From Candidatus Omnitrophota bacterium (lineage in GTDB: Bacteria > Omnitrophota > Omnitrophia > Omnitrophales > JACQLI01), in assembly GCA_016179745.1 (NCBI GenBank), contig JACPCP010000010.1:3832-67831 (forward strand): DNA of 64,000 nt. Direction: 5' to 3'. Made by a program: the position numbers and the translations under genes. The notes beneath the pieces are model-generated. The model did not search any database, was not told where the DNA came from, and saw only the letters and a list, made by a program, of their open reading frames with translations. Below, one piece after another: positions 13,894 to 18,280 of the stretch; the stretch's first letter is position 1; every line of letters begins with the position of its first letter.

Positions 13894-14910
13894 CTAGGCG
13901 GCCAGCGGTTGGGCGATCGCCACCTGACGGATGACAACGCCTCCTTCCTCCAGGAGCGCCTTCGCCCTTTCGGCCAGGTCGTAATCCACGTTGTAGACCA
14001 CTTCCCGAATGCCGGCATTGATGATCATCTTCGTGCAAATCAAGCAGGGCGAGTAGGTCGTGTAAAGCGTGGACTCCTTGATCGTGACTCCGTGGTAGGC
14101 GGCCTGCGTGATCGAATTTTCCTCGGCGTGGGAGCACAGGCATTCTTCCAGGTCCTTGCCGGAGGCGCTGAGGTTGTTGCAGCGGGGGCAGCCGCCTTCG
14201 CTGCAATTTTTGACCCCTCGGGGCGTGCCGTTGTAGCCCGTGGAAATAATCCTCCGGTCCTTGACGATGACGGCGGCCACCTTCCTTTTGATGCAATTCG
14301 ACCGGAGCGCCACCATTTTGGCAATTCCGATAAAGTAATCGTCCCAGTCCGGCCGCAGTTCCTTTTTGGAAAAATCGAGGAGCAGCCGTTTGATTTTCTC
14401 GTGGAGGTCCCGGAGCGGGCCGCCGTTTTCAAGCGTGGCGTCGGCCGAGGAAATCGTGCGGTCAAGCTGCTGGTGATCGGAATCCGGGCTCGCTGCTTCT
14501 TTTGCCTCGAGGGCCAGGAACTCCTCAAAAGTGCGGGGGTCATTCTCCCGGCCCCGCTGGCGGAGCCGCTCAAATCGGAGACGCTGGGGGCCCTGAACAT
14601 GGACGAGGGAGAAATCCCGGCGCCGGCGGAAGACCTGGGCCTCGGCCGGGTGACGGATCGAATCGATGATGTAATTTTTCTCGGGGTCGAGCCGGGCGAA
14701 AATCCGCTCGGCCAAAACGCCGGGTCCGGATTCCTTGCGGAGCCGGTTGCCGAGCTCCACCAAAACGTCCCGGGTCACGGGCTGGCCCGCACTGCGGGCC
14801 TCGTCCCGAAGGACATCCGAAAGGGAGAGGGGGACAAAGCCCCGCTCGGCCAGAAACTTTACGGCCTCGCCCTTCCCACCTCCATTTTTCCCGGTCAATC
14901 CGATAATCAT
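13894..14910 (-). CDS. Fusion protein: N-terminal P-loop nucleotide-kinase-like domain + C-terminal dCMP deaminase (CDA-fold) domain
   Basis: N-terminus MIIGLTGKNGGGKGE is a Walker A in a CoaE/dNMP-kinase-like context. C-terminus HAEENSITQAA...YSPCLICTKMIINAGIREVVY carries the zinc-binding motifs (HAE, PCxxC) of deoxycytidylate deaminase. Confidence 0.6.
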   Translation of the reverse strand: MIIGLTGKNGGGKGEAVKFLAERGFVPLSLSDVLRDEARSAGQPVTRDVLVELGNRLRKESGPGVLAERIFARLDPEKNYIIDSIRHPAEAQVFRRRRDFSLVHVQGPQRLRFERLRQRGRENDPRTFEEFLALEAKEAASPDSDHQQLDRTISSADATLENGGPLRDLHEKIKRLLLDFSKKELRPDWDDYFIGIAKMVALRSNCIKRKVAAVIVKDRRIISTGYNGTPRGVKNCSEGGCPRCNNLSASGKDLEECLCSHAEENSITQAAYHGVTIKESTLYTTYSPCLICTKMIINAGIREVVYNVDYDLAERAKALLEEGGVVIRQVAIAQPLAA

Positions 14911-15635: not shown

Positions 15636-16469
15636 CTAGTTGGCAGGAATACGATTAACTGTTAATTTCCCTACCTGGCGGTTTCCTTCAACAATGAAAA
15701 AGATAATCCTGACTCTCTCCAAATTCACTCCCTTGAACTCGGAGGTGGGGATCGCCCACACTTGTTCCTTTCCCCGTTTGATCCCTTCGAGAATCACGGA
15801 GGCCTTCCGGCCTTTACTGTCGACAATCTCAAGCTTGACTTCGGAGGGATCTCCTTTGAGACCAAATACCAACCGGGATCTCCCGCTTAGATCCACCGTC
15901 TCAATCTTAGAAGTCCCAAAATGGTCATAGGTAAATCCCCCGCCTGAAAAACCGCCCGTCTTTGTATCATAGCTGAAGAGCATCCCACGACTTGTCTTTT
16001 GGGCTGAAGCTTTGACATTTTGGCCCGAGGGTTTTGTCACAGCCAGAAGCGGCATCTTAAACCTCTGACCCAAGTCCTTGACGATGGTTTGGGGCAAACG
16101 AGAAATCTTGTCCGGGGTCAGGGTGGGATGCGGAGAAATCGTGGTCGAGGGAACGCTCCTGGGACGGCCAATGCTCCCCTCATCCGAATCGAAATCTTCG
16201 TTCTCAGAGGTTGCGGCCTTTGAAAGAGGGCTGTGCTTTTCACTTGCGTCAATTGCATTGAACCTTCCCCTTTCGGCATCGGACGAAGCATTGGGTGCGT
16301 TCGAAGTGGTCTCGACCTCAACGGACTTCACTGGCACGTAATGTCCCCCATCCTGAGCCTGCACTACAACGGGAGCTTCGTCTGCGAGAATGGATCCGGG
16401 AATCGCTAACCCCATTATTACGAATAGAGGAAGGACCCTGCTCAATCTGGATATTCTATTTGTAACCAT
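15636..16469 (-). CDS. Hypothetical secreted protein
   Basis: Internal start with a GGAG RBS. Signal peptide RVLPLFVIMGLAIPGSILA. Acidic, Ser/Thr-rich linker, then a C-terminal beta-rich domain. No family recognised. Confidence 0.4.
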   Translation of the reverse strand: MVTNRISRLSRVLPLFVIMGLAIPGSILADEAPVVVQAQDGGHYVPVKSVEVETTSNAPNASSDAERGRFNAIDASEKHSPLSKAATSENEDFDSDEGSIGRPRSVPSTTISPHPTLTPDKISRLPQTIVKDLGQRFKMPLLAVTKPSGQNVKASAQKTSRGMLFSYDTKTGGFSGGGFTYDHFGTSKIETVDLSGRSRLVFGLKGDPSEVKLEIVDSKGRKASVILEGIKRGKEQVWAIPTSEFKGVNLERVRIIFFIVEGNRQVGKLTVNRIPAN

Positions 16470-16682
16470 AAGCAATTTCTGTTTCTCCTTTAGCCGCCTG
16501 AAGTTAAGAATTAGTAAACTTCTTAACTGAGAGCAGTGAAATAAGCCTAGCATCTATTCGGAAAAAGTCAAATTCACCTCCGAAAGCTACCCTTTTTCCT
16601 GTGGGAAGCGTCAGGTAATGGAAAAATGCTCGGGAAATCCAAGCGACGTGTGATATACTTTCGCAGAAAAGGAGGCGGTTCC

Positions 16683-16889
16683 ATGCCCATAAGTTGTCCT
16701 GAACCTATTGATTTGACAAAAATTCTGGAACCCTACGAAGGGGAATGGGTAGCTCTTTCTTCGGATCAAAAAAGGGTGATGGGTCATGGTCCAACTCCTC
16801 ACGAAGCCCTCGAGATGGCTAAAGAAAAAGGAGAGAAAGATCCAATTCTTTTTGGTGTGCCGGACGCCTATTCCAGCCATTTCTTGTGA
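16683..16889 (+). CDS. DUF5678-like small protein
   Basis: AGGAGG RBS before MPISCPEP. EGEWVALSSDQKRVMGHGPTPHEALEMAKEKGEKDPILFGVPD resembles DUF5678 family members. The assignment is from memory and not verifiable here. Confidence 0.45.
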   Translation: MPISCPEPIDLTKILEPYEGEWVALSSDQKRVMGHGPTPHEALEMAKEKGEKDPILFGVPDAYSSHFL

Positions 16890-16942
16890 TCCAGACTTTT
16901 CACCTTCCTTAAACAAAAATCCTCACGAAGCCCTCCGAGGCC

Positions 16943-17338
16943 TTGCCTCAAAGGGCGTTGATCCTCCGACCTATGCTTTCTATCTGGCTTTCGCATGGGG
17001 AGAAGAAAATCCATACGCTTGCCCTCCTTGATTCCGGTGCGGATGACTGTCTTTTCCCGGCATTACTGGGCCGCGAAATCGGGCTTGAGGTGGAGGAAGG
17101 GAAGAAACAGTTTTTCTCCGGAGTCGGTTCCGCGGGCAATGTCTCCTACTTCCATAAGGTTAAAATAGCTTTTGAGTTGGATGAGCATCCTTTTGAATTC
17201 GAATGTTATGCCGGGTTCTCAACAGCGATGGACCTCGTCAAGTTCGGCCTCCTTGGCCGGTACGGCTTTTTTGACCTCTTCAATCGGCTCACCTTTGACA
17301 CCGAACACTCACTCATCGAGATTAATGCTGACTTGTAG
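16943..17338 (+). CDS. Retropepsin-like (clan AA) aspartic protease
   Basis: 131 aa. ALLDSGADDCLFP carries the D(S/T)G active-site motif in the hydrophobic context typical of single-domain retroviral-type aspartyl proteases. Confidence 0.6.
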   Translation: MPQRALILRPMLSIWLSHGEKKIHTLALLDSGADDCLFPALLGREIGLEVEEGKKQFFSGVGSAGNVSYFHKVKIAFELDEHPFEFECYAGFSTAMDLVKFGLLGRYGFFDLFNRLTFDTEHSLIEINADL

Positions 17339-17542
17339 CAGCGTGGGACGAGCTACCTCCGAACCATAACCTGCTCGGAGATTGGAATTCGCCCCCGTCT
17401 ATCTTAAGAACGTTTCACTGCCTAGGTAGTCGTTCTTAAAGAGAAACGAAATCCTCAAGGTCAAGGGACGACCCTGCGGGGCGGGTCCAAAGGCGCAGCA
17501 GTGCCTCGCTCGTGGGGGTTGTGCTAGAATGAGCGCCACTTT

Positions 17543-18280
17543 ATGGAAGCGCTCAAACGGATTTTACTCTCGGTTTACCTTTGGATCGCCGTCATCCTCG
17601 TGACCGTGGGGGTGACTACCCTGATTGTGATCACCTGGCCTCTGGCCCTGGTGGACCCTTCGAGGCGCCTCGCCCACTCCCTCGGGGCCGTTTGGGCCTA
17701 TCTGCTTTTGCATGTCAACCCTCTCTGGCATTTCGAAACCCTGGGAATCAAGAAGCTCAAAAAAGACCAGGCTTACGTTCTCATCTCAAACCACGCAAGT
17801 CTTTCGGACATCGTCTGCCTCTTCAGCCTTCGTCACCCTTTCCGGTGGCTCGCCAAGCGGAGCCTCTTTTACATCCCTTTTCTCGGCTGGGCGATGAAGG
17901 CAATGGGCTCGATTCCGCTTGAACGGGGCCGCCACGGAAGTATCCGTGAGAGTTACGCCCAGTCGCTTGAGTGGCTCCGGCAGGGTGTCTCGGTCCTGAT
18001 TTTTCCGGAGGGGACCCGCAGCCGGACGGGTGAAATGGGAAAATTCAAAAGCGGGGCCTTTAAGCTTGCGATCGAGTCCGGCTGTCCGATCGTGCCTATT
18101 GTCCTCACCGGAACTCAGCAAATCATCGCAAAAGGTAAATCCTCCTTCGGCAGGCCGGGACGGGCGGTGATGAATGTTCTGGATCCGATCGAAACGAGAG
18201 GACTCGACCCCAAAGAGGAAGAAGCGGTCCGTTGCCGGGTGGAAAATTTAATGCGGGCCGAGCTTCGGAGACCTGCTTAG
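17543..18280 (+). CDS. plsC: 1-acyl-sn-glycerol-3-phosphate acyltransferase
   Basis: NHASLSD (HX4D block) and FPEGTRS motifs, with an N-terminal TM helix. Confidence 0.8.

Follow-up and report, generated by a model that had tools for sequence, protein, structure and literature searches.

A widespread pairing of DUF5678 and retropepsin-like protease genes, and an interrupted copy of the pair in a Candidatus Omnitrophota bacterium

Two short genes on the forward strand of a 64,000-nucleotide stretch of DNA from a Candidatus Omnitrophota bacterium (contig JACPCP010000010.1; the whole stretch is called the window here, and positions given without a locus number refer to it) raise the question of whether they form one functional unit and, if so, what that unit does. 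The first encodes a small protein of the DUF5678 family and the second a retropepsin-like aspartic protease, and a preliminary description of the region 16683-17338 had proposed that they make up a conserved module resembling toxin-antitoxin (TA) or protease/inhibitor pairs. The answer developed below is that the pairing is genuine, that the copy in the window is a damaged one, and that a TA-like function is possible and has to be weighed against several other explanations.

The DUF5678 gene and the retropepsin-like protease gene are a real, widespread gene pair, apparently undescribed so far. A scan of species-representative genomes with the protease alignment yielded 57 loci, from Omnitrophota, Acidobacteriota, Planctomycetota, Actinomycetota, Nitrospirota, phyla of the candidate phyla radiation, Proteobacteria, Elusimicrobiota, and others, and in 53 of the 57 a DUF5678 gene lies directly upstream on the same strand, which bears out the conserved neighbourhood that had been supposed from the window. 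All but one of these upstream genes (52/53) were found with a hidden Markov model built from two small proteins, and the divergent one in L052 (..GKWVAVTKDG..) was recognised by eye. The other four loci are one at a contig edge with no small gene found (L051), two that hold only C-terminal fragments of the protease, with no small gene found (L057 and L060), and one in which the small gene and the first ~45 protease codons are replaced by a Phd/YefM-ParE pair (L004). Among the ~46 intact proteases of the protease-selected loci, none was found without an intact upstream DUF5678 gene, and the small open reading frames (ORFs) extracted from these loci are full-length. The two proteins also co-diverge, their pairwise distances being correlated with r = 0.93 (40 pairs, 780 distances). 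A literature search returned nothing on the pairing, nothing relevant on retropepsins together with antitoxins, and nothing prokaryotic under the Pfam accessions, in agreement with the earlier statement that the pairing has no assigned function.

The arrangement of the two genes is compact. Their junctions are 4-nt overlaps (GTGA or ATGA) or gaps of ~0-40 nt in 50+ loci, and the protease gene occurs in all three frames relative to the small gene; the overlaps and short spacers, taken with the use of all three frames, argue for translational coupling of the intact copies rather than a read-through fusion. Expression by read-through or frameshifting of the gag-pro kind was considered and rejected, since all three frames occur and the inspected junctions have an overlapping or closely spaced start codon. 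One locus is unusual in holding two modules: L080:354-3205 contains two divergent DUF5678-protease modules, 1.5 kb from each other and each with a dprA-like gene behind it. In the upstream module, a DUF5678-like sequence shares its frame with the tail of an aroK-like ORF, and it overlaps (ATGA) a gene for a 149-aa DSGAS protease. This double module could be a tandem duplication or a chimeric assembly.

By motifs and predicted fold, the family of the second gene is one of genuine retropepsin-like (clan AA) aspartic proteases. The window protein carries LLDSGADD, the GxG flap (FSGVGS), and the hydrophobic-hydrophobic-Gly element (FGLLGRYGFF), and its catalytic D-S-G-A motif is encoded on the plus strand at 17030..17041 (GAT TCC GGT GCG, with the catalytic GAT at 17030-17032). 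This Asp is intact in the window and invariant in an 89-sequence family alignment, in which the motif Gly (DSG), the flap Gly, L-G..GFF, and the Pro preceding the core are at least 90% conserved. The 131-aa protein read from the window itself falls below the Pfam gathering scores (RVP 17.6 vs 20.7; Asp_protease_2 16.1 vs 24.3), and neither it nor its intact relative P0001 has an NCBIfam match at E ≤ 1, TIGR03698 and TIGR02281 included. The clan-AA assignment made earlier from LLDSGADD thus stands on the motifs and on the fold of a relative, but not on the Pfam scores of the window protein, and the suggested TIGR02281/TIGR03698 assignment falls away. Across the family, 60 of the 89 members match Asp_protease_2, 44 match gag-asp_proteas, and 16 match RVP (E ≤ 0.01); 14 weakly match TIGR03698 (best 5.8e-7) and 2 match TIGR02281. 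With most members matching neither of these two models, the family is, on profile evidence, a separate one that has no NCBIfam model of its own. An exhaustive profile search retrieved 2303 cluster representatives (50% identity) at E ≤ 0.001, with 566 passing E ≤ 1e-10; almost all are single-domain proteins of 130-160 aa, and public annotations are generic ("retropepsin-like domain-containing protein," "hypothetical protein," "DUF5678 domain-containing protein").

Evidence for the fold comes from P0001 (150 aa, 91% identical) and not from the truncated ORF of the window. The AlphaFold2 model of P0001, made with the 89-sequence alignment, has a predicted local distance difference test (pLDDT) value of 96.6 and a predicted template modelling score of 0.89, and its top Foldseek matches in the PDB are APRc, the C-terminal domain of Rv0977, the RSV and EIAV proteases, and Ddi1. 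Similarly, the sequence profile aligns DSGAD with DTGAQ of Ddi1 and also matches the FIV, EIAV, and HTLV proteases (E ~1e-3). The N-terminal 28 residues of the intact protease, which include a conserved FPY/LPY, are modelled as confident beta-strands, and the proteases start x-F/L-P-Y. The enzyme would act as a homodimer. Two odd architectures were met within the family: P0084 (1243 aa) contains 12 separate stretches matching protease profile positions 68-127, and a second, partial retropepsin-like match (L028:5714-5980; profile positions 21-78, E 1e-8) lies ~2 kb downstream of an intact module.

The small protein of the window is a DUF5678 protein, as the preliminary description had it. It passes the gathering score of that family (PF18929; 36.1 vs 23.2 bits, E 5.9e-9, profile positions 2-48 of 49), and 25 of 25 diverse partner proteins match DUF5678. 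The small ORF has 277 homologues at E ≤ 0.001, with relatives that stand next to the protease, and the catalytic Asp of the protease is intact; these were two points on which the earlier proposal could have failed. The AlphaFold2 model of the small protein (109 homologues) has the order alpha-beta-beta-alpha-beta, with an overall pLDDT of 76.5, a core at 76-89, and floppy ends (residues 1-4 below 50, the last block averaging 57). Residues W22, A24, and P60 are invariant, and the C-termini form a conserved hydrophobic tail (..SHFL, ..SYLL, ..AMFL). No PDB match was obtained by sequence profile and no Pfam domain of the ribbon-helix-helix (RHH), helix-turn-helix, AbrB, or Phd type was found, and a fold search of BFVD returned only other DUF5678 proteins, weakly. 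Inspection by eye shows no obvious signal peptide or membrane segment in either product, and both proteins are therefore probably cytoplasmic. The small gene is under strong constraint in the window's clade: the ratio of nonsynonymous to synonymous substitution rates (dN/dS) is 0.03-0.13 in every pair with relatives, and 0.03-0.07 even where the protease is dead or deleted.

The window copy itself departs from the usual structure of the pair. A 54-nt gap followed by a 131-aa protease had been read from it, the latter being the ORF that opens at a TTG (16943..17338, plus strand; codon 20 of the frame described next). The closest homologues, 84-91% identical, are 150 aa long, begin MIRTFHLPYTR.. 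or VTQTFHLPYTK.., and start at a GTG or ATG that overlaps the stop of the small gene by 4 nt; for example, in L001 the DUF5678 gene occupies 2274-2480 and the 150-aa gene 2477-2929. In the window, the DUF5678 gene (16683..16889, plus strand; 68 aa) is intact, with its TGA stop at 16887-16889, and an ancestral protease frame of 150 codons (16886..17338, plus strand), collinear with P0001-P0003, L001, and L072, begins at a GTG (16886-16888) that overlaps this stop (GTGA). DNA alignment and translation of this frame give GTG ATC CAG ACT TTT CAC CTT CCT and then an in-frame TAA at codon 9 (16910..16912), where L001, L067, L068, and L072 have TAT (Tyr9, part of the conserved FPY/LPY motif); after the TAA the frame stays collinear with the relatives (TKILTKPSEALPQRALILRPM...). 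The nearest relative, L072, keeps both the GTG and the TAT. A sequencing or assembly error was rejected as the source of the TAA, since the same 656 bp, TAA included, are present without a difference in six contigs, each assembled on its own from a separate run; the TAA is therefore a real allele. The 54-nt gap and the 131-aa length are thus the product of a one-base nonsense mutation and not native gene structure, and this part of the preliminary description has to be given up.

Two internal starts could still serve the interrupted frame, the TTG at 16943 and an ATG at 16973 (codon 30), the latter giving the 121 aa called in public assemblies. As a result of the TAA at codon 9, products starting at codon 20 or 30 would lose the N-terminal strands and FPY/LPY; the missing residues 1-29 are modelled in P0001 as three confident beta-strands (E2-8, E10-13, and E25-28, pLDDT ~98). 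By eye, the only Shine-Dalgarno (SD)-like sequence is a GAGG a mere 2 nt before the TTG, and no GGAGG precedes the ATG. Since neither start has a well-placed SD, the protease of the window is probably null, or else a poorly made, N-terminally truncated hypomorph without the three predicted beta-strands, and efficient production from this cassette is expected for the DUF5678 protein alone. The window copy should accordingly be regarded as a degenerate allele, for which annotation as interrupted fits.

For the window alone, it is about an even call whether the protease part has gone the whole way, that is, whether it is a recently inactivated pseudogene beside a DUF5678 gene that is the one functional part here. 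The TAA fixed in six assemblies, the poor SD context of both internal starts, and the three lost strands favour this, as do the independent lesions of sister lineages, namely a lost start in L067 (GTG→GTA), an internally deleted protease in L071, and a replaced one in L070 and L004. However, codons 30-150 show no visible relaxation (dN/dS 0.04-0.08, with dS 0.8-1.06, in the pairs that include the window), so a product initiated at Met30 could be under selection, and L067, which lost its upstream start independently, keeps the same Met30. The low ratio therefore means that the TAA is recent or that a truncated product is still used. Truncated calls are also found where the gene is whole: public gene calls shorten the N-terminus to 89 aa in L102 (4368-4637) and 101 aa in L106 (4340-4645), though the full frame with a nearby GTG or ATG is open there, whereas in L061-L066, the contigs identical to the window, the 121-aa call is due to the genuine TAA stop. 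Wrong starts are common in public calls of this protease, and length statistics from such calls are unreliable.

The expression signals ahead of the small gene fit the earlier description in part. An AGGAGG SD lies at 16670..16675 on the plus strand, 7 nt 5' of the ATG, as claimed, and an extended -10-like element (TGaTATACT) lies at 16651..16659 on the same strand. In a DNA alignment of the window with L001 and L002, TATACT is invariant (all three carry the same allele of the element) and AAAGGAG is kept in both relatives. The -10-like TATACT is thus present and conserved, but no full promoter was called by a simple sigma-70 consensus scan of the region. The cassette would accordingly bring its own 5' region, with the -10-like element and the SD as a candidate promoter. 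An Rfam scan of 16000-18000 revealed no known RNA element at E ≤ 1. Within the cassette, a 19-nt direct repeat is found at 16793-16811 and 16917-16935, with an 18/19 match (16 exact: TCCTCACGAAGCCCTC); the first copy belongs to the DUF5678 gene, and the second occupies a 5' portion of the protease gene and is read in another frame. By calculation, chance would very rarely give such a repeat at this spacing. The match drops to 13/16 in L001 and 15/16 in L067, and in L071 the homology breakpoint of the internal protease deletion falls inside the second copy.

No part of the window other than the cassette as a whole (16615..17359, plus strand) has homology to related contigs, and the blastn edges lie at 16613-16619 on the left and 17339-17359 on the right. 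When the protease-carrying relatives L001, L002, L067, and L068 were compared with the 64-kb window by blastn, only the cassette matched, at ~84% identity, and the flanks were unrelated; L072 matches the window cassette up to its own contig end, and the relatives with a deleted or replaced protease (L069, L070, L071, and L004) show homology to just part of it. Across the 57 loci, the ORFs closest to the pair on either side belong to 89 different Pfam families, none of which occurs in more than 2 loci, and no conserved third gene or pathway context was found around the loci. The contexts include a CDC48-like AAA ATPase (L001 and L070), RHH-ParE and MazE-ParE pairs (L067), the vicinity of dnaA and dnaN (L104), and a position beside mutL and a PIN gene (L106). 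The distribution is patchy, with different contexts among close relatives. From these sequence comparisons, the cassette appears to be an autonomous, horizontally exchangeable unit of ~745 bp. A 9-nt flanking repeat (ACCTCCGAA, at 16576 and 17355) was rejected as a target-site duplication, ~2 such matches being expected by chance per 1 kb, and a phage or plasmid origin was likewise set aside after plasmid, phage, IMG/VR, and PHROG searches returned no match, which is weak evidence from one query or pattern set.

In many copies of the cassette, the protease has been lost and the small gene kept, which is asymmetric decay. Among the protease-selected loci, the protease has in-frame stops in L005, L046, and L056 (the stop in L046 replaces the first Gly of the flap GxG) and frameshifts in L035, L047, and L058. 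A second sample of 34 loci, 32 of them assessable, came from a metagenome scan that used the DUF5678 subfamily of the window as its seed and is therefore biased toward that subfamily; the protease is apparently intact, or cut off only by the contig end, in 19 of the 32, and 13 have no intact protease. The losses in this second sample take several forms: a stop (L074), a frameshift (L090), a C-terminal remnant only (L071, L088, and L094, with codon ~14 joined to the last ~20 codons in L071), a MazE-ParE pair in place of the protease (L070), a DUF433-DUF5615 (PIN-like) pair in its place (L075 and L076), no protease (L089), and membership of another DUF5678 subfamily, one that lacks the protease (L092, L095, L097, and L101). 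The protease-selected and small-gene-selected samples differ in ascertainment. The same range of states is seen within the window's clade (at least 84% identical), where the protease is intact in L001, L002, and L068, intact to the contig end at about codon 114 in L072, interrupted by a nonsense codon in the window, without its start in L067, internally deleted in L071, and overwritten by TA pairs in L070 and L004.

Exchange with TA pairs is accompanied by physical proximity to them. The cassette lies in or beside TA clusters, with L067 adjoining RHH-ParE and MazE-ParE pairs, and it is a Phd-ParE pair that has overwritten L004. In addition, an AF2212-like domain (PF01954) is fused to DUF5678 at L095:2345-2674, with no downstream protease, the AF2212-like part being confirmed for L095 alone; the region also holds a weak, sub-threshold DUF3368 match. 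AF2212-like domains accompany PIN toxins. The fusion suggests that DUF5678 is a module reused in TA-type proteins.

In the window, the cassette is flanked by a secreted hypothetical gene on one side and a PlsC-type acyltransferase gene on the other. The former (15636-16553, minus strand) is divergent from the cassette and has an N-terminus that is signal-peptide-like by eye, as stated in the preliminary description, and it has no Pfam or NCBIfam match at E ≤ 1. The 200-nt spacer to the plsC-like gene (17339-17542) contains a perfect 10-bp inverted repeat (CTTAAGAACG...CGTTCTTAAG) that forms a hairpin at ~17400-17440 without a T-run; the spacer folds modestly better than shuffled sequences (z = -2.06), lies outside the cassette homology, and has no Rfam match. 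Further upstream, the minus strand at 13894-14910 encodes a dCMP/cytidine deaminase of 338 aa, for which precomputed Pfam matches on identical contigs indicate an additional AAA_18-like (kinase-type P-loop) region at the N-terminus.

What, then, might the pair do? The suggestion of TA or protease/inhibitor logic holds insofar as an unconserved context, sharp homology boundaries, asymmetric decay, and replacement by TA pairs are all observed, but the function itself is inferred and no antitoxin fold is found. A TA-like cassette in which the DUF5678 protein neutralises a cytoplasmic aspartic protease is the most likely reading, at a little under even chances. Under this reading, the protease, acting as a homodimer, would be an effector that is harmful or costly when unchecked, and the DUF5678 protein would be its cognate, stoichiometric neutraliser; the hydrophobic C-terminal tail might occupy the substrate cleft much as a product strand would, or might block the dimer interface, and the pair would behave like a type II TA or abortive-infection cassette. 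The broader proposal, that the pair represents a new, phylum-spanning class of TA or abortive-infection systems with an aspartic protease as the toxin and a proteinaceous inhibitor acting through its C-terminal tail as the antitoxin, can be advanced only tentatively.

Several findings weigh against a TA-like function. Neither protein matches a known TA family. No DNA-binding or antitoxin fold was recognised in the small protein, for which the best Foldseek match in the PDB has E 0.57 from a model of moderate confidence (pLDDT 76.5), and this protein also matches no PADLOC model. The orphan small genes of L070 and L071 are under strong purifying selection, which points to a possible function of their own, and the constraint on codons 30-150 of the window protease, described above, belongs to the same side of the account. 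Some of the disruptions in metagenome-assembled genomes could be assembly errors and inflate the count of lost proteases, the window's lesion alone being verified in independent assemblies. The association of the neighbours with defence islands is sporadic, and a tblastn search with P0001 found no plasmid or phage copy and an IMG/VR scan no locus, although this is weak evidence from one query protein or pattern set only.

The explanation that survives best beside the TA-like reading is a benign regulatory proteolysis pair, in which the protease would have a specific task in processing or turnover and the DUF5678 protein would serve as adaptor, as activator, or in assembly. RimB within RimABK offers a loose parallel, being a cytoplasmic retropepsin-like enzyme for which a regulatory role has been described (PMC11957791). 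The tight pairing and co-divergence of the two proteins, the strong purifying selection on both genes, the retention of the small gene without the protease in L070 and L071, and the lack of an antitoxin-type fold in the small protein would all be expected of such a pair. What makes it unlikely is the genomic setting: no conserved substrate or pathway gene lies nearby, the neighbours being spread over 89 families; the distribution is patchy, with different contexts among close relatives; and the protease is frequently inactivated and replaced by TA pairs, which is unusual for a useful housekeeping regulator.

A role as an anti-phage abortive-infection or defence module, with the DUF5678 protein holding the protease inactive until infection, overlaps mechanistically with the TA-like reading and is rather improbable as a separate explanation. 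The proteases weakly match the PADLOC candidate-defence models PDC-M52B (5.3e-8 for P0012; 3.7e-4 in the window's clade) and PDC-M08B, at least one locus adjoins the DISARM genes DrmA and DrmD, L102 adjoins an Mrr-type restriction gene, and the cassette is mobile with TA-like turnover. On the other hand, the window's clade gives just a weak match and the small protein none, most neighbours are ordinary housekeeping genes, the PHROG, phage, and IMG/VR searches gave no link, and the literature search found nothing on PDC-M52. Finally, that the small protein is a substrate or precursor of the protease, such as a processed peptide or a pro-domain acting in trans, is very improbable. In its favour, the tail (..SYLL, ..AMFL, ..SHFL) is conserved, hydrophobic/aromatic, and similar to retropepsin P1/P1' preferences, and the overlapping genes imply stoichiometric co-translation. 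Against it, the alpha/beta core of the protein is conserved and folded (W22, A24, and P60 invariant; pLDDT 76-89), unlike a variable core peptide, no maturation or export genes lie nearby, and purifying selection persists on orphan small genes that have no protease beside them.

If the TA-like reading is true, aspartic proteolysis joins the toxin activities of mobile two-gene addiction or defence cassettes, and DUF5678 becomes a genetically encoded inhibitor of retropepsin-type enzymes, which bears on protease control and on the evolution of the retroviral protease fold. Should it be wrong, two uncharacterised families are nevertheless tied into one functional unit by their strict pairing.

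Among known systems, the nearest enzymes are the bacterial retropepsin-like proteases, which include APRc (RC1339) of Rickettsia conorii (PDB 5c9f; PMC4140852), RimB of Pseudomonas fluorescens (PMC11957791), and RloA-C of P. aeruginosa (PMC12239564). Like these, the cassette protease has a single retropepsin-type domain of ~120-150 aa with a D-[ST]-G-A motif, and APRc is the best structural match to the P0001 model (Foldseek E 6e-5, TM 0.57-0.65), at an identity of only 12-14%. Unlike them, it has an extra conserved N-terminal beta-hairpin with FPY/LPY, and it is paired with DUF5678, no such partner having been seen for those enzymes in the reports turned up by the literature search. APRc is reportedly membrane-embedded. 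RloA-C are described as secreted in the title of their report (PMC12239564), whereas inspection by eye reveals no obvious signal peptide or membrane anchor in the cassette protease. With the retroviral proteases and the RVP domain of Ddi1 (MEROPS clan AA, A2, A28), the cassette protease shares the fold, the catalytic motifs, the GxG flap, and the hydrophobic-hydrophobic-Gly element (GLLG); unlike the retroviral enzymes, it is not part of a polyprotein, and its upstream partner is a separate ORF. It also resembles TIGR03698 (clan_AA_DTGF, the AF_0612 family) and TIGR02281 in being a small, stand-alone prokaryotic clan-AA protease. Similarly, component B of PADLOC PDC-M52 and PDC-M08 consists of ~120-140-aa proteins that match the protease family (P0012 against PDC-M52B, 5.3e-8), but none of the PADLOC models is matched by the DUF5678 protein, which means that the protease has a different partner gene from that of PDC-M52 and that the two components of that system do not occur together here.

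For the proposed inhibition, a parallel exists in yeast IA3 (68 aa), which inhibits saccharopepsin, a two-lobed, pepsin-type target that is not encoded in an operon with IA3. The DUF5678 protein has no sequence or fold relationship to IA3, but both are small and acidic, and the DUF5678 protein is hypothesised to inhibit an aspartic protease in the same manner, through a segment that is disordered when alone. With respect to type II TA systems (MazEF, ParDE, and Phd-Doc), the cassette differs in lacking homology to known toxins or antitoxins and in having no detected DNA-binding fold in the upstream protein, and we know of no aspartic protease described as a TA toxin. In its organization and turnover, the cassette nonetheless resembles these systems: it consists of two small co-oriented genes, the smaller one first, with overlapping stop and start codons; it is autonomous, with its own 5' region, patchy across phyla, and set in unconserved contexts; and its downstream gene is often inactivated while the upstream gene is kept, with physical interchange between the cassette and classical TA pairs.

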